Below are positions 3,025 to 63,241 of a DNA stretch of 64,000 nucleotides, one piece after another. Within the stretch, counting starts at the first letter, position 1; every line of letters begins with the position of its first letter. Source of the stretch: an uncultured Vampirovibrionales bacterium (GTDB lineage: Bacteria > Cyanobacteriota > Vampirovibrionia > Vampirovibrionales > Vampirovibrionaceae). The notes beneath the pieces are model-generated. The model worked only from the letters and a program-made list of their open reading frames with translations. It made no database searches and had not been told where the DNA came from. The position numbers were made by a program, and so were the translations under genes. Location: contig CAYLWC010000006.1 of NCBI GenBank assembly GCA_964387265.1, positions 21,272 to 85,271 on the forward strand. Direction: 5' to 3'.

Positions 3025-3094
3025 ATCTTCGGGTTATGGACGTCCAATTCTCCCATATTATAAGTGACCCGCACGCTTCCGTCTAATGGTGATC

Positions 3095-22726: not shown

Positions 22727-23857
22727 ATGGCACAACCGCTTCAGTTGAAAAAGCCTTGTCAAAAGGAAGATTTTCGGGATTTCAGCCTGGAGAAGCAGCA
22801 GCCGGAATGGCACGATTGGAAATGGCAGTTCCGCAACCGAGTGACCACGCTGGAGACCTTAAAGCAGTTTATGCTGGTTACGCCTGAGGAGGAAAAGGCC
22901 TTTCAGGCCGCTGGGAAGAACCTGCCCTTTGCGGTGACGCCCTATTATCTGGATTTGATCAACCCCTGTGATCCCCAAGATCCTATCCGGAAGACCGTGA
23001 TCCCCAGAGTGGCCGAGTTCACCACCGCCCCATCAGAAATGGTCGACCCCTGTGGGGAAGACAGCCATATGCCGGTGCCGGGGCTGGTCCATCGCTACCC
23101 GGATCGGGTGTTGTTTCTGGTGAATGAGACTTGTTCGGTCTATTGCCGTTACTGCACCCGCAGTCGTCTGGTGGGGAGCGGGAAGCATCAGGTCGAGTTT
23201 GGTGAGGTGTATGAGTACCTCCGGAATCACCCGGAAGTGCGGGATGTCTTGATTTCCGGCGGGGATCCCCTGGTGATGTCTGACGAGAAGCTGGAAGGGA
23301 TTATCCAAAATCTACGGGCCATTCCCCACTTGGATATTGTGCGGATCGGGTCCAAAATCCCTGTGGTGTTGCCGCAGCGCATTACCGATGATCTGGTGAA
23401 TATGCTCAAAAAGTGCCATCCCTTCTACATGAGCATTCATTTCCTGCACCCCGCGGAAATTACGCCGGAGGTGGAAGCCGCTTGCAACAAGCTGGCGGAT
23501 GCGGGTATTCCTACCTTTAGCCAGACGGTGCTGCTGAAAGGGGTGAATGATGATCCGGCGGTGATGAAGGAGCTGATGCTCAAACTGCTGAAGATCCGGG
23601 TACGGCCTTATTACATTTACCAGTGCGATCCTGTTCAGGGGACCACCCATTTCCGCACTTCTGTGGATAAAGGACTGGAAATCATGGAGCATTTGCGGGG
23701 GCATATTACCGGGTACGGGGTGCCAACCTATGTGATTGACGCGCCTGGCGGGGGTGGGAAGATTCCCATCTCGCCTGATTACATTGTTTCCCGTGAGCCT
23801 GGGAAGATCACCCTGCGCAACTTCCGAAATCAAGTTTACGAGTACATCGACTCCTAA
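22727..23857 (+). CDS. KamA-family radical SAM aminomutase (lysine 2,3-aminomutase-like).
   Basis: CSVYCRYCTR CxxxCxxC radical-SAM cluster and KamA-type N- and C-terminal regions. 376 aa. Confidence 0.85.
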   Translation: MAQPLQLKKPCQKEDFRDFSLEKQQPEWHDWKWQFRNRVTTLETLKQFMLVTPEEEKAFQAAGKNLPFAVTPYYLDLINPCDPQDPIRKTVIPRVAEFTTAPSEMVDPCGEDSHMPVPGLVHRYPDRVLFLVNETCSVYCRYCTRSRLVGSGKHQVEFGEVYEYLRNHPEVRDVLISGGDPLVMSDEKLEGIIQNLRAIPHLDIVRIGSKIPVVLPQRITDDLVNMLKKCHPFYMSIHFLHPAEITPEVEAACNKLADAGIPTFSQTVLLKGVNDDPAVMKELMLKLLKIRVRPYYIYQCDPVQGTTHFRTSVDKGLEIMEHLRGHITGYGVPTYVIDAPGGGGKIPISPDYIVSREPGKITLRNFRNQVYEYIDS

Positions 23858-23865
23858 TGCCTTCA

Positions 23866-24040
23866 AGTGCTCCTAACTTATGGGCACTTGCACTGTCTGA
23901 GCACGCTGAGTTATAAAAAATGTCCAGCCGAAGCCTTGCAGGCTGGGCCACATGCAATTTGCTTGAAGCGCGCGCAGTTAGCAGAGTGCCCTAGCGGGCG
24001 GGGGTTGTAGGGGGGCCAGTAATGCGGCCCCTACAAAAAA
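23866..24040. repeat. Structured intergenic repeat element, copy A (second copy at 57972-58130).
   Basis: Shared blocks with copy B: CTAACTT, TGAGCAC, ATAAAAAATG, a hairpin with the identical 11-nt loop GAAGCCTTGCA, GCGCGCAGTT, CCTAGCGGG, and a 3' GC hairpin. All three helices are maintained by compensatory substitutions. Confidence 0.7.
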
Positions 24041-24152
24041 ATTGCAGATATGAACAGTAGTAAATGGATTTTTTACTACATATCAAGTAGATTGTTTTTT
24101 CCCCTACAATAGCAAGTGTGACGTTGCGAACTTCTTTGGGAGAACATGGGTT

Positions 24153-26705
24153 TTGGCTAATATCTGGCAGTTTCGGGGTCCAGAATCGGTTGAATTGACC
24201 GCAGATATTCTGCAAGCGGCAGAGGGGGCCCCGCTCCTGGCGAAGCTGCTCCTGAATCGAGGCATCTCAACCCCGGAAGAGATTCAGGAATTTCTGGATC
24301 TGGAAAGCTATGAGCCGACTTCTGGCTGGGAATTGCCGGATATGAAGGTGGCGGTCGAACGGATTCTAAAGGCCCTGGAGACTCAAGAACATATCCTGAT
24401 CTACGGGGATTTTGATGTGGACGGGATTACCGGTACCTCGATCCTTTACGAAACTCTCAAATACCTGGGCGCCAACGTTAGCTATTACATCCCGGATCGG
24501 GCTACCGAAGGCCATGGCCTTAATACCGCTGCGGTGATTCGCTTGACCAGCACCCGGAAAGTCAAATTGGTGATTACCACCGATACCGGGATCACCAATT
24601 TTAACGAAGTGAGCCTGCTCAATGGCCTCAAGGTCGATACCATTGTCACGGATCACCATGAATTGCCGGAAAACCTGCCTCCCGCCATCGCCAACGTCAA
24701 CCCCAAACGATTTCCCGATCAAAGTCATCCTCTGGCGCCCTTATGCGGGGCCGGGGTGGCCTATAAACTCTGTGAACTGTTGCTGGAAACCAAAAAAGGA
24801 GAGGCAGGGCTTCTTTTCGCCAATCAATTGCTGGACTTGACGGCTATCGGGACCGTCGCGGATTTGGCGTCGCTCTTAAAAGAGAACCGCTATCTGGTCT
24901 ATCAGGGCCTGAAGATTCTAAATACCCGAGGGCGGCTGGGTATCCAGAAAATCCTGGAGCAGGCCGGGACCAACCCGGAGGCCGTTTTAACCAGTGAAAC
25001 CGTTGGCTTTACCATTGGCCCCAGGCTGAATGCGATTGGCCGCCTGGATAATGCCAAGGACGCCGTGGAGCTGCTGACCACCAAGGACCCGGAACGGGCT
25101 CAGGTGATTGCCTCTCGCCTGGAGTATCTCAACCGACAGCGGCGAGAACTCTGTGATCAGACGTTTTTGGAGGCTGAGCGACACCTTTCCGCGACTGGCG
25201 GGCTGGGCAGCCGACGGGCGATTATTCTGGCCAGCCCCCACTGGAACCTGGGGATTATCGGCATTGTCGCTTCCCGGTTGATTGAAAAGTATCATGTGCC
25301 GGTCTTTATGATGGTGGTGGATGAGTCCAAGGGGGAAGCCCGGTGTTCCGCTCGCTCTATCCCTGGTTTTCACCTTCATGATGAGCTGTTGGCATTGCAA
25401 CAGTACTTCCTCCACTTTGGCGGCCATGCCGGGGCTGGTGGCTTTTCCATCAAAATGGAGCAGTTGGAGCGTTTCAAGCAGGAACTGTATGCCCTGACGG
25501 AGCGAAAAATCACCGAAGAGCAGATGAAACCTATTATAGAAGTAGAGGCCAAGCTGGAATGGTCTCAGCTGAACCCGCATTTGGTGGAGCTGATTGCGAA
25601 AATGGCCCCCTTTGGCATGGACAACCCCGCGCCCAAGTTTGTGCTGGAAAATGTGACTATCTCAGCCCAGCGGGGGATTGGGGAAGGCGAGCGCCATCTC
25701 AAGCTCATGCTGACGTGTAAAGGCGGAACCGCCCCCATTGAAGGCTTGATCTGGAACGCCAAGGAGCGCCTGAACCCGAAATATCCCCATAATTTTGTGG
25801 TGGTGCCGGAATTGAATACCTTTAACAACACCACCAAGGTCCAGCTGATGATTGAGGATTACCAGTCTCCAGAAAACCGGGATCTTCCGGTCACCTCGGC
25901 TACCAAGGTCGCCTCAGTTGTGGCCACCGCCCCGGTGAAGGTGGCGACCGTACCCGCCGTGGCAGAAGAGGACCCCGGTATCCGCTGGGTGGATCACCGG
26001 AGTCGGGAGTCCGTGGAGTCCTTTATTGGCCAGTTAATGCGACCCTTGCAGGAACAGAGAAAGCTGGTGATTTATCATGAGGGCCGAAAGCCAGAGATTC
26101 CCTTCCTGAAAGAAGAGCTGTTGTGTGGGCGCCTGGACTTGCGTCAGGCCGATGAGCTGATTCTCTGGGATCTGCCGCCGTCACTAGAGAGCTTGCAGCA
26201 AGTGCTTCAGGGGGTGCAACCGGAAGTGATTCACCTGGTGGGTGGAAAATACCAAACGGTTCCGGTCTTCCCTACGGGGCAAATGTTTCTGAAGGTGATT
26301 TTGCAAGGGATCAAGCGCCAAATGGCCGAGGAAAAGGCCAATGTGGTCGAGGTTGAGTTTGCCACGTTTGCCGGGAAACTCGCTGGAACCGAACCGGTGG
26401 TGACCAACGGCCTGATTTTGCTGGGCAAACTGGGGCTGATCCATGCTGGGGTGGTGGAAGGCTCCAAGGAATCATCGGAAGCCCCCTGGTCTGCCATTCG
26501 AGTCACCCTGAACCCGCAGCCGCCCGCCATTGAAAACATTACCCAGTACCTGGAGTTTATGGCCTTTCAAAACGCCCTGCGGGAAGTTGGGAAATTTCGG
26601 AACTGGCTGTTAAGCGCCCCTCTTGATAGAATTAAAACCACAGTACTGTTCAATCGCCATGAGAAGGAAGCAAACCCCCATGTCTACCACGCCGCAGCTC
26701 GATAA
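24153..26705 (+). CDS. recJ: Single-stranded-DNA-specific exonuclease RecJ (long form, 850 aa).
   Basis: DHH motifs (LIYGDFDVDGITG, VITTDTGI, VTDHHE), DHHA1 domain (GGHAGAGG), then an additional C-terminal extension of about 270 aa. Confidence 0.85.
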   Translation: MANIWQFRGPESVELTADILQAAEGAPLLAKLLLNRGISTPEEIQEFLDLESYEPTSGWELPDMKVAVERILKALETQEHILIYGDFDVDGITGTSILYETLKYLGANVSYYIPDRATEGHGLNTAAVIRLTSTRKVKLVITTDTGITNFNEVSLLNGLKVDTIVTDHHELPENLPPAIANVNPKRFPDQSHPLAPLCGAGVAYKLCELLLETKKGEAGLLFANQLLDLTAIGTVADLASLLKENRYLVYQGLKILNTRGRLGIQKILEQAGTNPEAVLTSETVGFTIGPRLNAIGRLDNAKDAVELLTTKDPERAQVIASRLEYLNRQRRELCDQTFLEAERHLSATGGLGSRRAIILASPHWNLGIIGIVASRLIEKYHVPVFMMVVDESKGEARCSARSIPGFHLHDELLALQQYFLHFGGHAGAGGFSIKMEQLERFKQELYALTERKITEEQMKPIIEVEAKLEWSQLNPHLVELIAKMAPFGMDNPAPKFVLENVTISAQRGIGEGERHLKLMLTCKGGTAPIEGLIWNAKERLNPKYPHNFVVVPELNTFNNTTKVQLMIEDYQSPENRDLPVTSATKVASVVATAPVKVATVPAVAEEDPGIRWVDHRSRESVESFIGQLMRPLQEQRKLVIYHEGRKPEIPFLKEELLCGRLDLRQADELILWDLPPSLESLQQVLQGVQPEVIHLVGGKYQTVPVFPTGQMFLKVILQGIKRQMAEEKANVVEVEFATFAGKLAGTEPVVTNGLILLGKLGLIHAGVVEGSKESSEAPWSAIRVTLNPQPPAIENITQYLEFMAFQNALREVGKFRNWLLSAPLDRIKTTVLFNRHEKEANPHVYHAAAR

Positions 26706-27252: not shown

Positions 27253-27286
27253 AAAAAAGTGACCTGTTGAGACAGGTCACTTTTTT
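27253..27286. terminator. Bidirectional intrinsic terminator between convergent genes.
   Basis: AAAAAAGTGACCTG-ttgaga-CAGGTCACTTTTTT: a perfect 8-9 bp stem flanked by A6 and T6. Confidence 0.75.
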
Positions 27287-42218: not shown

Positions 42219-42282
42219 GAAATGACTGTCGGGGTGTCTTTCGGGACACCCCGGTTTTTGGATATAATCCCATTGAATACTG

Positions 42283-54081: not shown

Positions 54082-54164
54082 GCGCCGAGAGCAGCATTCA
54101 AGAAAACACTGCCCGTTTCCGGGCAGCGTTTTTCTTCTGATTGATTGGGTGGGTGAACGGATGA

Positions 54165-57129: not shown

Positions 57130-57963
57130 ATGGAGAATCAACCACCAAATGTGAACTCGCTCACAGATAAGGAGCTTCAGATTAAGCTTGCTGAATATAA
57201 AATGTGGACTGAAACTTCAACGAAGCATATAGATCTTATTTTCAAATCTGTTGTTTTCGTTATTACAGCAAGTGGTGCTGTTGTTGTATTTAATTTAAAT
57301 AATAACTTTGAATTTCCTTTTTCTCTAAGCTTGTTATTTATTGCATTATTATGCGGTTTTATGTCTGTCATATTCGGTTATCCTGCATTTTATTTAATAA
57401 GCTCCTGCAAAAGGATGGAAGAATTAACTACTGAAATTAACGCAAAGCTGCGCCCCACTCTAGATTTACTTCAAAGGATACTCTCCATTTTTTCTGTGCT
57501 TTTCTTGCTACTTTCTATCATATTTTCCAGTTTATTCTTTCGACCATGCTTGTTTGGAATTCAAAACACAGTTAGTAACTATGAACACTCAACTAGCTTA
57601 GAAGATGATAGTCAAACAATTAAAGCACACCAAATAGAGTATCAAAACTATAGAGATAAAATTAATAGTTCAGAACACAAGCTAGCTTACTTAAATAAGA
57701 GACTTACTGAAATTGACACAGAATTAAACAACCTTCTCAATAAACCACAGAAATCACAGACAGAAATTAACCAGATTAAAAACTTAAAAAATGAATTATT
57801 AAAACACAAACAGGAACTAAAACAAGAAATTGCCCACATAAAGAAAATAAGACAAAGCATTCAAGTAAAAATTGATAAAGATAAAGTATTACGCGATAAA
57901 TACCAACAGCAAGCCTTGCACTATGCGAAATTAGAGCAACTACTACTTAATGAAATAAACTAG
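57130..57963 (+). CDS. Hypothetical membrane protein (three predicted TM helices plus a C-terminal ~110-aa coiled coil), encoded by a low-GC (~33%) horizontally acquired gene.
   Basis: Long clean ORF of 277 aa. The strong AT-rich composition contrasts with the ~55% GC of the flanks. TM segments are VVFVITASGAVVVF, LLFIALLCGFMSVIFGYPAFYLI and ILSIFSVLFLLLSIIFSSLFF. The K/E/Q/L-rich heptad-like tail is NELLKHKQELKQEIAHIKKIRQ. Confidence 0.6.
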   Translation: MENQPPNVNSLTDKELQIKLAEYKMWTETSTKHIDLIFKSVVFVITASGAVVVFNLNNNFEFPFSLSLLFIALLCGFMSVIFGYPAFYLISSCKRMEELTTEINAKLRPTLDLLQRILSIFSVLFLLLSIIFSSLFFRPCLFGIQNTVSNYEHSTSLEDDSQTIKAHQIEYQNYRDKINSSEHKLAYLNKRLTEIDTELNNLLNKPQKSQTEINQIKNLKNELLKHKQELKQEIAHIKKIRQSIQVKIDKDKVLRDKYQQQALHYAKLEQLLLNEIN

Positions 57964-57971
57964 TGTTTGCC

Positions 57972-58130
57972 CCACCTAACTTGGCCCTCGGATTGTTTGA
58001 GCACAGCGAGGGATAAAAAATGCCGAGCCGAAGCCTTGCAGGCTCGGCCACTTAAAAACCTGTCTGAGCTGCGCGCAGTTTCCGAGGGCCTAGCGGGGGT
58101 CCAGGGGGCGGCAATGAGCCCCCTGGGTAA
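57972..58130. repeat. Structured intergenic repeat element, copy B (paralog of 23866-24040). On the minus strand it forms the 3' UTR/terminator of gene 58148..58924.
   Basis: Same block order as copy A. The hairpin GCCGAGCC-GAAGCCTTGCA-GGCTCGGC has a loop identical to copy A and is followed on the minus strand by ATTTTTTAT. Outer helix GGCCCTCGGA/TCCGAGGGCC. 3' hairpin CCAGGGGGC-ggcaatga-GCCCCCTGG. Confidence 0.7.
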
Positions 58131-58147
58131 TTAACCCCAAAATATTA

Positions 58148-58924
58148 CTATAATTTATACAACGTCGCCTTCACGTTCAGGCGAATCCCGCCCGCCTCGG
58201 AGACCTCGTTAATTTGCGCCCCATGACGCAGGGGCAGCTTCATGACGAAAATATCATCCTCAGACACGCCCACAGCAGAGGCCTGACCGTATTGGTCTGG
58301 ACAACTCGTCACGGCATGAAGCACACTGGCCGCTCCGCCCGTATGCAGATCATCCACATACACATGCAGGGTTTGCCCATCGGGGTTCATGCGAGCGCTC
58401 ACATTGGCTGGGTGGGTTACGGGCGTTACGGTATAACGCATCTGGCACCCATCCGCGTTAATTTCTCCGCCACCGCTCAGGTATTGCAGGGTCCCCTTCC
58501 CCGGAAATTCCTTCTGACCTGGCCCGATGGAGAAATCAACCTGCGCGCGGGAGACGAAAACCAGGTGTCCGTTTCCGCCATCTGGGAATTGATGCCAGCT
58601 CTCACGATGTTGATCCAAGACGAGGCGATAGTTCCCATAAGCGGTGGGTGGAGCAAATGGGGTTTCGGCTGCGCGTTTTGCGGCGAAGCCTGGGGCGCAT
58701 TGTTGACGAATGGGCTCAAACTGTTGCATGAGTTGCTGAACCATGGGGTTGTCCCGCTCTTGTCCCATTTCCGCCTGCATCCGGCGAAACTCTTCACACA
58801 TCTCATCAATTTGCTGCTGGGACTGGGCCGAGGCCAGCGGCACTTGCAGGAGTAACCCCCACAAAAACAGCGCGAACATCCCACAAAGGGTCAAACTGAT
58901 ATATAGACGTTTCATCACCAACAC
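58148..58924 (-). CDS. Hypothetical secreted protein.
   Basis: Signal peptide (LYISLTLCGMFALFLWGLLLQVPLASA). 258 aa, no family recognised. Confidence 0.5.
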   Translation of the reverse strand: MLVMKRLYISLTLCGMFALFLWGLLLQVPLASAQSQQQIDEMCEEFRRMQAEMGQERDNPMVQQLMQQFEPIRQQCAPGFAAKRAAETPFAPPTAYGNYRLVLDQHRESWHQFPDGGNGHLVFVSRAQVDFSIGPGQKEFPGKGTLQYLSGGGEINADGCQMRYTVTPVTHPANVSARMNPDGQTLHVYVDDLHTGGAASVLHAVTSCPDQYGQASAVGVSEDDIFVMKLPLRHGAQINEVSEAGGIRLNVKATLYKL

Positions 58925-60475: not shown

Positions 60476-63241
60476 ATGCTGAGCCATTTTTTCAAGCAAG
60501 TGGACATTCGTTTTTTGACGTTACTGGCGTTGCTGGTGATGCTGGTTCCGGCCTCCTGGGCGATCGATCACCCCAGAGAACTGGCAGGTGTCTGGAAGGG
60601 CTCAAACGGACTGGAATATGAAATCCAGGTCAATGGCCTGGAGGTGATTCTGCTGAAGCCGGTGGGTTACTCCACGGAGCGGCAACCCCACCGGGGGCGC
60701 TTTAACCAAACAGGATTTGAGCTGGAGTTTAAACCTCGGGAAGACCATCACCTGAACTTGGAACTCCCGTTTAAGGTGCGCCATACGTTGCTCAGCTCAC
60801 CTGAATACAAGCAGATGGACCGGCTTGATTTAAGCACTCCCGGCAAAATTATCTATGTGGACCGGATAAACTGGATCACTTGGGACGGGAAGGAAAATGT
60901 CACGGATATTAAATACAATTACAAGGAGGAGCGCATCACGCTGACTCGCCCCAACGACTACTATAAGATTGGGGAAATTACCATTGACGATTCCCGGCGT
61001 CGCCAGCGGATCGCCTCCGAAGTGGCGCAAATGCAGGCTCAGATTGATGAACTGCGGACGGTCCGCCAACCGGCCCTGGAGCAAGAATTAACGACTTCTG
61101 AACAGGAGATGAAAGCGGCGGAGGATGCCTTTCAGCAAGCCACAAACCGTTATGAGGATCTGAGCGGGCAGCTCAAGGCCACAAGCGAACAATTGCGTCA
61201 ACTGGCTGAGAGCAAGAAACCGGCTTACCAGCAGTTATTGGCGGATCGTGACCAGCTTTTGAAGGAAGTGGACGCGCTCCTTTCTGTTAAGAACGATTAC
61301 TTTAAAACGGGAAACATGCAGGGGGTCAATTCTATGGACCGCCAGCTACGGGGAAAATACAATGATCTGGAGCGCCTCAACCAGCGGCTGGTGCGAGAAT
61401 TTCCCGAGGATCAGCAAATCAAGGAGTTAACCAACAATATTGAGAACTTAAAAGCGGAGCGACAAGCGGCTTTTAACGAGTATTATCAAGGAATGCTGGC
61501 CTATGACCGGGCGGTCGAGGCCCATCTGCAGAAACAGAAAGAACTGGGTCGCCTGCAAGCCCAAATCAGCCGTCGGGAGCAAGAATTGGCTTACCGGCAA
61601 CGGCCGGTGGTGGTGAGTAAGATCCGGCTCATGGTTGGGGGAGAGGTGCCTTTTGAGGCGGAGGCTTCCCAGGAGCAGGGAACCCTGCAGCGCTTTGAGG
61701 AAGACATTGCCCAGGTGGATCAAAACCTGGTGCAGTTAAACCAGTCCCTCCATGGGCTGATGCAGCAGGAAGAGGCCATTGCCCAGCAACGGCAACAGGC
61801 TAAGGAGCGATTTTTAGAAGCGGCGCAAGAGCTTAAAGCGGCTGGAGATTCGGTCTATAATACCCAAATAGGCAGCATGATTGGCCGGGCGGCGGCTGAA
61901 ACCGCCGCTTATGGGGCGGATGTGTTTATGGCCTTTAAGGATGGGGGTCTGGTGGGCGTGACCGTTGAACTGGGCGGGAAGCTTCTGGAAGCCTATCTTC
62001 AAGAAGGTGAAACCTTTGAACTGTTTGATGAAACCGCTCTTCGGGAGCAGATGATGGGCCCCATGATCGCAAGCCATCCGTTGCATCAGGCTTATGTTGC
62101 CGCGCAAAATGAGCAAGGCGAGACCGCTCCGGCTCATTATCCCGTGATAGACGGAGAGACCCAGCCTCAAGACAGTAATATGGTGGATCAGGTCTCTGGT
62201 TTCGGGACAGAGTTTGCCATGAGCCAGAAAGACAAGCTGATCATCGTCACCCCGTTAAAAGAACTGGCCACACGGGGAGTCAACATTTACAAGTACCATG
62301 ACGCTATGGGCCAGATGGATGCAGCCAGAGAGATGCTTCAGAAAAATGCCCAGGTAAGCCGGGTGGACTTTCCGGATCATCAAGCCCTCAACCCCCTTGC
62401 CCAGGCTCAGGAAGATGCGTTTTCTCGCTATCTCCAGTCTCGAGAATTGGTGAACCAGGCAGAAGACCGCTTGGCCCGAACCACCAACCCCTTGTTAAGA
62501 AAGGAGGCTCAAGAGCAGCTTGCCCATGCGACCCGACTTCAACGAGCCGCCCAGAACAACTACAACCATTTGGTGCAAGAGCAAGCTCTCCAGGCGCAAA
62601 AAATCAGCCGGGCCCGCCGAGGGATTGCTGAGGCCACGGAGCATTTGGATACATTAAAAGAAGCTGGCCAAGGCAGTATCACCAAGAGCTTAAAGAACAT
62701 GGGTAGCGGGGTGGCCAAAGGGTTGGCCGTTGATCTGCTGAAGGCCGCCGCCCACAAATGGGCGGATCATGAGGAGCGGGAAGCCTGGATTCATTTCTTT
62801 GAGAAGGAAATCGCGATGCAGGCCAACCGGCAAATTTTCCAGAAAGCCTCCAACAACTTCTGGAATCACCAGGACGCCATCAAGAACCATCAGGAGTTGA
62901 TTCAGACGTTGTCCCAGATTCGGACCGCCCTGGAAAATGATCGCTCCCGCTATTTAGCGAGCAAAGGAGACGGTGGTTTTTACATCGTGAACAACCAGGG
63001 CTTTCAACCCAAAGAATCGACCGTCATGATCCTTTCGCTGATGGGGTATGTGGGGTCTGAGGAAGTTCGGCTGGCCGAGACCGTGAGTGGCCATCCGGTG
63101 CAGCTTCGTCTCCAGAGCGGTTTGGAAGAAAACGCCCGCAGCCTGGATCATACGGATCACGCGTACCGGTTCCAACCCAATGCCATTAAATCCATCCAGG
63201 TAAAAGACAATCTCTTGCCCTTACGAATTCAATTGCTCTGA
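60476..63241 (+). CDS. Large secreted/anchored coiled-coil protein (921 aa), hypothetical.
   Basis: N-terminal signal/TM (FLTLLALLVMLVPASWA). Extensive Q/E/R/L/A-rich coiled-coil segments (aa ~170-420 and 650-800) flank a central globular region. No family recognised. Confidence 0.55.
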   Translation: MLSHFFKQVDIRFLTLLALLVMLVPASWAIDHPRELAGVWKGSNGLEYEIQVNGLEVILLKPVGYSTERQPHRGRFNQTGFELEFKPREDHHLNLELPFKVRHTLLSSPEYKQMDRLDLSTPGKIIYVDRINWITWDGKENVTDIKYNYKEERITLTRPNDYYKIGEITIDDSRRRQRIASEVAQMQAQIDELRTVRQPALEQELTTSEQEMKAAEDAFQQATNRYEDLSGQLKATSEQLRQLAESKKPAYQQLLADRDQLLKEVDALLSVKNDYFKTGNMQGVNSMDRQLRGKYNDLERLNQRLVREFPEDQQIKELTNNIENLKAERQAAFNEYYQGMLAYDRAVEAHLQKQKELGRLQAQISRREQELAYRQRPVVVSKIRLMVGGEVPFEAEASQEQGTLQRFEEDIAQVDQNLVQLNQSLHGLMQQEEAIAQQRQQAKERFLEAAQELKAAGDSVYNTQIGSMIGRAAAETAAYGADVFMAFKDGGLVGVTVELGGKLLEAYLQEGETFELFDETALREQMMGPMIASHPLHQAYVAAQNEQGETAPAHYPVIDGETQPQDSNMVDQVSGFGTEFAMSQKDKLIIVTPLKELATRGVNIYKYHDAMGQMDAAREMLQKNAQVSRVDFPDHQALNPLAQAQEDAFSRYLQSRELVNQAEDRLARTTNPLLRKEAQEQLAHATRLQRAAQNNYNHLVQEQALQAQKISRARRGIAEATEHLDTLKEAGQGSITKSLKNMGSGVAKGLAVDLLKAAAHKWADHEEREAWIHFFEKEIAMQANRQIFQKASNNFWNHQDAIKNHQELIQTLSQIRTALENDRSRYLASKGDGGFYIVNNQGFQPKESTVMILSLMGYVGSEEVRLAETVSGHPVQLRLQSGLEENARSLDHTDHAYRFQPNAIKSIQVKDNLLPLRIQLL

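Follow-up and report, generated by a model that had tools for sequence, protein, structure and literature searches.

Two diverged copies of a structured intergenic element in an uncultured Vampirovibrionales bacterium, and the candidate explanations for their shared fold

Whether a structure shared by two diverged intergenic sequences acts as RNA, as DNA or as a transcription terminator is the question raised by a 64,000-nt stretch of contig CAYLWC010000006.1 from an uncultured Vampirovibrionales bacterium (GenBank assembly GCA_964387265.1, positions 21,272 to 85,271), referred to here as the window. The two sequences, designated copy A and copy B, are both intergenic and lie in the same (plus) orientation. 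An earlier note on this DNA described them as copies of one structured element, with a small RNA (sRNA), a module of 3' untranslated regions (UTRs) and a mobile repeat as candidate identities. [quoted passage not shown]

By their sequence, copies A and B are homologous. BLASTN aligns them with 75% identity across 128 nt (E 2.6e-15), in agreement with the ~75% identity given in the earlier note, and a structure-aware alignment with 158 shared columns gives a lower value of 68%. MAFFT misaligned the 3' third of the element, and the latter alignment was redone by hand, guided by structure and padded with N for use in the tools. The five blocks that had been quoted, CTAACTT, TGAGCAC, ATAAAAAATG, GCGCGCAGTT and CCTAGCGGG, were all recovered in A and B in the order claimed. 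A 19-mer core, AGCCGAAGCCTTGCAGGCT, has exactly two occurrences in the window with up to 3 mismatches allowed (chance expectation 0.01), and a repeat search found no substantial repeat family in the window other than A and B. The GC content of the elements is 0.57 and 0.62, compared to ~0.51 for the window.

Independent minimum free energy (MFE) RNA folds of A and B yield one common architecture (z = -2.0 for A and -5.3 for B), composed of an irregular hairpin of ~125 nt that is tipped by an 8-bp stem and followed by a separate GC-rich hairpin. From the outside in, the long hairpin contains an outermost helix, an outer helix, an inner helix, an internal loop and the apical stem. The outermost helix is short (CC.CTA/TAG.GG), and in the inner helix, which is interrupted, the TGAGCAC block is base-paired to the GCGCGCAG block; neither helix was listed in the earlier note. 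The internal loop is large and its 5' side is an invariant, A-rich block of 10 nt, ATAAAAAATG, while the apical loop, GAAGCCTTGCA, is 11 nt long and also invariant between the copies. The 3' GC-rich hairpin has an 8-nt loop containing AATG. All three helices that had been quoted previously are present in both copies, as is the identical 11-nt loop, which closes a central hairpin of 8 bp.

The RNAalifold consensus includes 44 base pairs, all kept in A and in B with none broken. Between the copies, 27 of these pairs are unchanged, 13 have changed on both sides and 4 have changed on one side via G.U, which bears out the proposal that the helices are kept by different base pairs and implies selection on pairing. 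The outer helix (helix 3) has 5 of its 8 pairs swapped on both sides, the inner helix (helix 4) has 3 compensatory and 2 one-sided changes among 11 pairs, and the 3' GC-rich hairpin (helix 6) has 3 compensatory pairs. In a column-shuffle control the observed pairing measures were attained in 0 of 500 shuffles, and sliding the 3' partners by 1-3 columns reduced pairing from 100% to 28-53%. In a substitution simulation, where 30 of the 88 paired positions differ, random changes retained a mean of 24.9 pairs and a maximum of 37 in 100,000 trials. The covariation counts are from a single pairwise comparison (n=2) in a structure-guided alignment, and each helix is also present in each copy alone. 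Because compensatory changes keep the helices around an invariant loop, the comparison points to base pairing under constraint, not chance complementarity.

If the pairing were not constrained, A and B could descend from a single old duplication of an intergenic, palindromic segment and be a functionless relic, whose stems persist by mutational bias alone. Such a relic would leave just two known copies with no homologue in relatives or in the collections searched (see below), as is seen here, but it would not be expected to accumulate 30 substitutions at paired positions with 0 broken pairs, compared to ~19 expected. Short of a strong process that corrects palindromes, neutral decay is very unlikely, and the 11-nt loop and the 10-nt A-rich block have remained invariant while the adjacent stems changed. 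We regard a neutral origin of the fold as highly improbable. The positions of the element and its parts are given in Table 1.

Table 1. Location of the two copies and of their paired and invariant segments in the window.
Feature	Position	Strand	Remarks
Copy A, whole element	23867-24036	+	170 nt; covariance model 193.6 bits
Copy B, whole element	57969-58128	+	160 nt; covariance model 162.2 bits
A, outer helix 5' arm GGGCACTT	23882-23889	+	Partner 23984-23991
A, outer helix 3' arm GAGTGCCC	23984-23991	+	From MFE fold and pair counts
B, outer helix 5' arm GGCCCTCGGA	57983-57992	+	Partner 58081-58090
B, outer helix 3' arm TCCGAGGGCC	58081-58090	+	From MFE fold and pair counts
A, inner interrupted helix 5' arm, includes TGAGCAC	23897-23910	+	Partner 23963-23977, includes GCGCGCAG
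B, inner helix 3' arm, includes GCGCGCAG	58064-58078	+	Partner 57997-58010
A, invariant block ATAAAAAATG	23913-23922	+	Minus-strand reading: U-tract after central hairpin
B, invariant block ATAAAAAATG	58013-58022	+	Internal loop (plus) or U-tract (minus), as in A
A, central hairpin GTCCAGCC / loop GAAGCCTTGCA / GGCTGGGC	23922-23948	+	Helix 5, 8 bp
B, central hairpin GCCGAGCC / loop GAAGCCTTGCA / GGCTCGGC	58022-58048	+	8 bp
A, 3' GC-rich hairpin, loop AGTAATGC	24006-24035	+	Helix 6; no U-tract after it on either strand
B, 3' GC-rich hairpin, loop GGCAATGA	58100-58127	+	From MFE fold and pair counts

The 3' hairpin of A has GTAG at its start and CTAC at its end, and B has TCCAGG at the position of GTAG. 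The pattern of this hairpin has no match in the window outside the two elements. The sequence CCCCTACAA occurs twice near copy A, at 24025-24033 as the 3' arm of the GC-rich hairpin and again 75 nt downstream at 24100-24108, where it includes TACAAT, which could be a -10 box for recJ.

Both copies are found close to the 3'-end of a plus-strand gene, with CTAACTT starting 15 nt (A) and 12 nt (B) past the stop codon. Copy A is located between a kamA-like gene (22727-23857, plus strand), which predicts a KamA-family radical SAM protein, and recJ (24153-26705, plus strand). Homologues of KamA assign the lineage to Melainabacteria/Vampirovibrionales. Copy B fills the gap between two convergent genes, an open reading frame (ORF) for a membrane/coiled-coil protein (57130-57963, plus strand) and a secreted protein gene (58148-58924, minus strand). 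Neighbours with an assigned function are ordinary chromosomal genes (norB and genes for a PPIase, a DUF188 protein, a CitMHS transporter and a phosphoribosyltransferase), and several others have no family match. Among the ORFs scanned with Pfam/NCBIfam beside either copy, which are a minority of the ORFs in the window, there was no transposase, RAYT, integrase or reverse transcriptase. No promoter-like site was found beside either copy on either strand, and the copies have no upstream sequence in common that could serve as a promoter.

The frame in phase with the upstream stop codon remains open for 50 codons in A (23858-24007) and 56 codons in B (57964-58131), and each of the first two differences in length between the copies is divisible by 3, with the distance from stop codon to element and the first indel each differing by 3 nt. 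These features would suit a translated extension, made by stop-codon readthrough, or a small protein. However, a 1-nt indel after the central hairpin places the GCGCGCAGTT block in different frames, the upstream stop codons differ (TAA in A, TAG in B) and non-synonymous codon differences (12 or more) far exceed synonymous ones (about 5) in the shared frame, as judged by eye. None of the five ORF peptides (three in A, from plus or minus frames, and two in B) was called as a gene in a collection of 15 billion proteins, and HMMER searches of 1.84 billion representatives returned only two matches, which were repeat-inflated and unrelated. A coding role was rejected on the frame-breaking indel, the excess of amino-acid changes and the absence of the peptides from called genes, and retains almost no credence; the open frame in both copies is probably due to chance, though unusual.

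The distribution of the element was examined using a covariance model built from the two copies, with filters off. No third copy was found in the window, where the next-best score is 12 bits compared to 162-194 bits for the copies. Rfam 15 gave no match at the gathering level across the whole window, and at E values up to 10 returned only chance matches of 11-16 bits to eukaryotic microRNA and small nucleolar RNA models with thresholds of 45-100 bits. The suggestion that the family is unannotated is consistent with this result, as no known family was matched. BLASTN in distant mode with copy B found no match in plasmid and phage collections. Core patterns were also scanned in IMG/VR, the GTDB species genomes and the JGI metagenomes, by searches that need exact words so that diverged relatives could escape them. 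The exact 17-mer core has 26 matches in IMG/VR, all of them chance coding matches to the peptide AEALQA. The pattern AAAAAATN{6,12}CGAAGCCTTGCAG occurs at 64 loci in the GTDB species genomes, a collection from which the genome of the window itself is absent, and none of these is the element. Two matches to AAAAATN{3,8}GCCGAAGCCTTGCAGGC in the JGI metagenomes are both chance coding matches. Across the core scans, chance matches were mostly coding AEALQA stretches, with unrelated rhizobial terminators and a repeat resembling an insertion sequence (IS). Logan runs SRR7082976 and SRR7082966 also contain this organism, though only in contigs of ~1 kb.

Related loci were compared over ~150 kb of non-redundant DNA, made up of six kamA loci (L091, L096, L102, L103, L113 and L114; KamA identity 81-85%), the loci of the only three homologues of the copy B neighbour gene P0122 (L104-L112) and one norB relative (L116). 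The element was detected in none of them, with covariance model scores of ≤13 bits throughout and no BLASTN match in the subset of loci searched in this way; the best stray match, L114 18871-18928, is a plain A-run and hairpin. It is absent downstream of kamA in the six relatives, with the L102 contig ending 20 nt past the kamA stop, and it is absent beside the three homologues of the copy B neighbour gene. In L102, which carries the closest KamA relative (85%), those 20 nt (3055-3075) show no similarity to the element. The many genome-wide copies that had been expected from two in 64 kb are thus not supported, as there is no third copy in the window, in the ~150 kb of relatives or in the exact-core scans.

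The 3' flank of kamA is different in every relative examined. Three genes of unknown function that encode proteins of ~930 aa separate kamA from recJ in L091, sucC follows kamA in L096, a flavodoxin-like gene is present in L103, and L113 and L114 have other genes there. Upstream of ispF-HAD-kamA in L113 lie recJ and the phosphoribosyltransferase gene. Copy A therefore lies at a synteny breakpoint, a junction prone to rearrangement. Because the element is absent at the kamA loci of relatives and beside the homologues of the copy B neighbour, it is, on this comparison, not an ancestral, syntenically conserved RNA gene, and the arrangement implies that at least one of the two sites acquired its module by copying. 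An alternative in which A and B bound a moved gene block was rejected; the 921-aa protein encoded near B is not homologous to the products of the ~930-aa genes in L091. Among the three identities proposed initially, an independent sRNA gene is the least favoured, because there is no shared upstream promoter sequence and the element is absent from the loci of relatives. The likeness to paralogous or 3'-UTR-derived sRNAs lies in the two diverged copies, the invariant single-stranded loop and the conserved hairpin with a U-run, whereas the lack of synteny in relatives, of a shared promoter region and of an Rfam family, and covarying helices that span the putative terminator, set the element apart.

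Non-syntenic positions, with A at a synteny breakpoint, would fit a mobile element acting at the DNA level, of the MITE, REP (repetitive extragenic palindromic sequence) or PATE type, whose hairpins would serve transposition in the form of single-stranded or cruciform DNA, with any effect on RNA incidental. The stems would then persist because transposition requires them or because template switching corrects quasi-palindromes. The whole element forms a nested palindrome with folds of about equal quality on either strand, its size is inside the MITE range and B folds significantly as single-stranded DNA (z = -3.0), but A as single-stranded DNA does not adopt the consensus structure (z = -0.5). 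The arms of the inverted repeat also differ, with 5/8 outer pairs swapped, whereas a shared transposase should preserve the sequence of terminal repeats. No common target-site duplication is visible, no transposase or RAYT gene was identified among the scanned ORFs beside the copies, the GTAG tag is restricted to the 3' hairpin of A, and the element is GC-rich rather than AT-rich. The copies are also old (~30% diverged) and no young copies were seen. Action at the DNA level is a possible but rather unlikely explanation.

Several known classes of repeat resemble the element in part. ERIC sequences are dispersed intergenic repeats that form a long imperfect hairpin, occupy transcribed intergenic or 3'-UTR positions near stop codons and number tens to hundreds. 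The element is likewise a dispersed intergenic repeat in the 100-170 bp range with a long imperfect hairpin near stop codons, but it shares no sequence similarity with ERIC, is found in a host of another phylum, is present here in two copies instead of tens to hundreds, and has an extra 3' GC-rich hairpin. The stems of the element differ by compensatory swaps, in contrast to the small deviations from one consensus that are typical of ERIC. ERIC, also known as the intergenic repeat unit (IRU), is ~127 bp in length (RU-1 in PMC2759123; see also PMC3184786).

MITEs are defined as AT-rich elements of <500 bp that sit in intergenic DNA which is likewise AT-rich, with terminal inverted repeats of ~4-30 bp common to the members of a family and, at least when young, flanking direct repeats; they have multiple copies per genome and a related IS or transposase that can mobilise them (PMC10969869, section 2.1). 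Transcripts of MITE-type repeats in prokaryotes typically form stable stem-loops and can carry terminator-like modules, as in SPRITE (PMC10969869). The element shares with these a small, non-coding intergenic sequence with a terminator-like hairpin and T-run, and its transcripts would form stable stem-loops. It is 160-170 nt long, inside the length limit, and inverted complementarity is present (CC.CTA/TAG.GG and the 8-10 bp outer helix), though the arms differ between copies and the 3' hairpin lies outside them. B has CCCCA near both ends, the left one inside the outermost helix, and by eye no target-site duplication is shared by the flanks of both copies, though old copies may have lost theirs. 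The element differs from MITEs in lacking a direct-repeat target duplication and AT-richness (GC 0.57/0.62), and apparently also terminal inverted repeats of conserved sequence, and from SPRITE in that its terminator-like module is at the tip of a larger covarying hairpin and not at an end.

REPs are palindromes of 20-40 bp with GTAG or CGTC at one end and a high copy number (PMC3733652), and REP, BIME and REPIN sequences are GC-rich extragenic palindromes after genes with a proposed role in termination and mRNA stabilisation (PMC3733652, PMC3116915). The 3' hairpin of A, being GC-rich, following a gene and having a GTAG start and CTAC end, resembles a REP, but B lacks a GTAG or CGTC tag, the GC-rich hairpin is not independently repeated in the window and no RAYT gene was seen beside the copies. 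On these features the element does not qualify as a REP. It is best described as a new family of a known general kind, likened to ERIC, SPRITE, MITE and REP sequences and not filed under any of them.

An intrinsic terminator consists of a GC-rich stem closed by a short loop, with a U-tract directly after the stem on its 3' side. When read on the minus strand, the best-conserved 40 nt of the element form a GC stem and then CAUUUUUUAU, and in both copies the central hairpin is followed by CATTTTTTAT, with U6 within 1-3 nt of the stem. The minus-strand stem is 8 bp in B, and 6 contiguous bp and a mismatch in A. A terminator scan skips this hairpin, as its 11-nt loop is beyond the limit of 3-8 nt in the scan. 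The earlier note took each copy to carry a minus-strand intrinsic terminator; the hairpin and CATTTTTTAT are present as described and have a plausible form, but the terminator role is not established. It conflicts with the covarying outer helices, because an RNA that ends at the U-tract loses their 3' halves.

The functional unit could nevertheless be the minus-strand terminator formed by the central hairpin and U6, with the other complementarity secondary, either as a dispersed terminator similar to SPRITE or as the 3'-end of a minus-strand sRNA that starts near the GC-rich hairpin. The 40 best-conserved nucleotides coincide exactly with the hairpin and CATTTTTTAT, the genome uses canonical terminators (hairpin-plus-U examples elsewhere in the window are 27253-27286, 42228-42255, 54109-54126 and 51190-51167), and at B the minus-strand gene 58148-58924 meets no terminator-like signal before the module. 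At A, however, no minus-strand gene enters, as recJ is on the plus strand, and sequence past the U-tract, which would be untranscribed, still covaries with upstream sequence (helices 3 and 4). The minus-strand RNA truncated at the U-tract has no unusual fold (z -1.2 to +0.6), the A.C mismatch in the stem of A leaves only the 6 contiguous pairs, and neither copy has a promoter-like site beside it. We consider this explanation unlikely. More generally, the automatic reading of hairpin-plus-T-run modules as terminators is unwarranted where they are nested in larger palindromes.

On the plus strand, the terminator scan found no canonical terminator after either upstream gene. The 3' GC-rich hairpin has no U-tract and is therefore not a canonical plus-strand terminator. 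Although the palindrome folds on both strands, one-sided substitutions rescued by G.U number 4 on the plus strand and 0 on the minus strand, the RNAalifold energy is -68.8 for the plus strand compared to -62.2 for the minus strand, and the central stem of A has U.G on the plus strand where the minus strand has the A.C mismatch. Together with the truncated minus-strand RNA and the folds as single-stranded DNA, these observations lean weakly towards RNA rather than DNA and towards the plus strand.

In the favoured explanation, that of a dispersed intergenic repeat with a selected 3'-UTR hairpin, a module of ~165 nt would have been placed at at least two unrelated intergenic sites, each just past the stop codon of a plus-strand gene, and that gene's transcript would include it as a 3' UTR or intercistronic tail. 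The plus-strand RNA would form a very stable, long, irregular hairpin and a second GC-rich hairpin. Selection would act on the RNA fold, the likely roles being a barrier to exonucleases at the 3'-end or a site for processing or protein binding, and recognition would involve two single-stranded parts, the apical loop, which is invariant, and the A-rich internal loop. On the other strand, the central hairpin and U6 could stop transcription entering from the right, at B from the convergent gene 58148-58924.

Several observations weigh against this explanation. There are two known copies only, with no third in any sequence searched, and all covariation counts come from that one comparison in a structure-guided alignment. 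The plus strand has three invariant A.C oppositions, each of which would become a G.U pair on the minus strand; this keeps both strands as candidates, and the best-conserved stretch, ATAAAAAATG with the central hairpin, is most naturally taken for a minus-strand terminator. We infer transcription of the element and its strand from sequence, and past mobility is suggested solely by the non-syntenic positions; neither terminal inverted repeats of conserved sequence, a target-site duplication nor, among the scanned ORFs beside the copies, a transposase gene was seen. The element is also GC-rich (57-62% compared to ~51% in the window), unlike typical MITEs.

A more specific proposal is an undescribed class of structured non-coding RNA in Vampirovibrionia (Melainabacteria), a two-domain molecule of ~165 nt located in or derived from 3' UTRs, in which the invariant 11-nt apical loop and the A-rich internal loop would be bound by a partner, either protein or RNA, and whose role would be a specific regulatory one instead of that of a generic hairpin or terminator. 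This is decidedly unlikely on present evidence. Nearly all knowledge of the non-photosynthetic sister lineage of Cyanobacteria comes from metagenome-assembled genomes (MAGs). If it is real as an RNA, the element would be the first with a structured, non-coding nature to be described from this lineage, and it would offer a clear-cut example of compensatory changes preserving a fold between copies dispersed in a single genome. For now its weight is limited to that of a well-documented candidate, not a discovery.

Other identities were considered and rejected. The cores of an integron attC site, R''(RYYYAAC) and R'(GTTRRRY), pair with each other, and attC sites directly follow the ORF of a cassette and are arrayed beside intI. 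In the element, the 5' CCTAAC does not pair with the conserved CAGTT in the consensus fold, CAGTT is followed by AGCA in A or TCCG in B, and 34 kb separates the copies, which form no array and have no integrase among the neighbours scanned. The two copies are not the template and variable repeats of a diversity-generating retroelement, as the differences extend beyond adenines. A retron, ωRNA or bridge RNA was discounted in that no reverse transcriptase, TnpB or IS110 gene is found among the ORFs beside the copies, and 6S, signal recognition particle and Y RNAs in that there was no Rfam match. The cyanobacterial HIP1 repeat provides no context, with 1 GCGATCGC in the window, equal to the chance expectation.

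Further observations concern the genes around the copies and the sequences that surfaced in the pattern scans. ORFs 60476-63241 (921 aa), 57130-57963 (277 aa) and 58148-58924 (258 aa) have no Pfam/NCBIfam match, and just three homologues of the 258-aa secreted protein, with 51-55% identity, were detectable among 5.8 billion protein clusters. The closest homologue on a long contig of the norB gene in the window (P0132, 54165-56474) is in L116 (80% identity), inside a conjugative element that includes type IV secretion system genes, a relaxase and a coupling protein. The 56-58 kb segment beside norB has a GC content of 0.42 compared to ~0.51, and the norB region close to copy B may be a horizontal acquisition. 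In Rhizobiales, a conserved intergenic hairpin, AAAAAAATGCAAGGCC(C)GAAGCCTTGCA, is shared by many genomes (L038, L048, L049, L053, L060, L066, L067, L078, L085, L087 and L089) and is followed by a conserved stretch of ~90 nt ending in ...GCGCCTAGATCGCATCCTCCCAAGACTTTGACCGCG; it surfaced through a pattern scan and is unrelated to the element. A repeat in the Verrucomicrobiae MAG MFD10113.bin.1.57 (L031, L033, L062, L086 and L088), a chance match to the search pattern, has at least 5 copies on three contigs that are identical over ~190 nt, appears coding-like by eye and may be a transposase gene.

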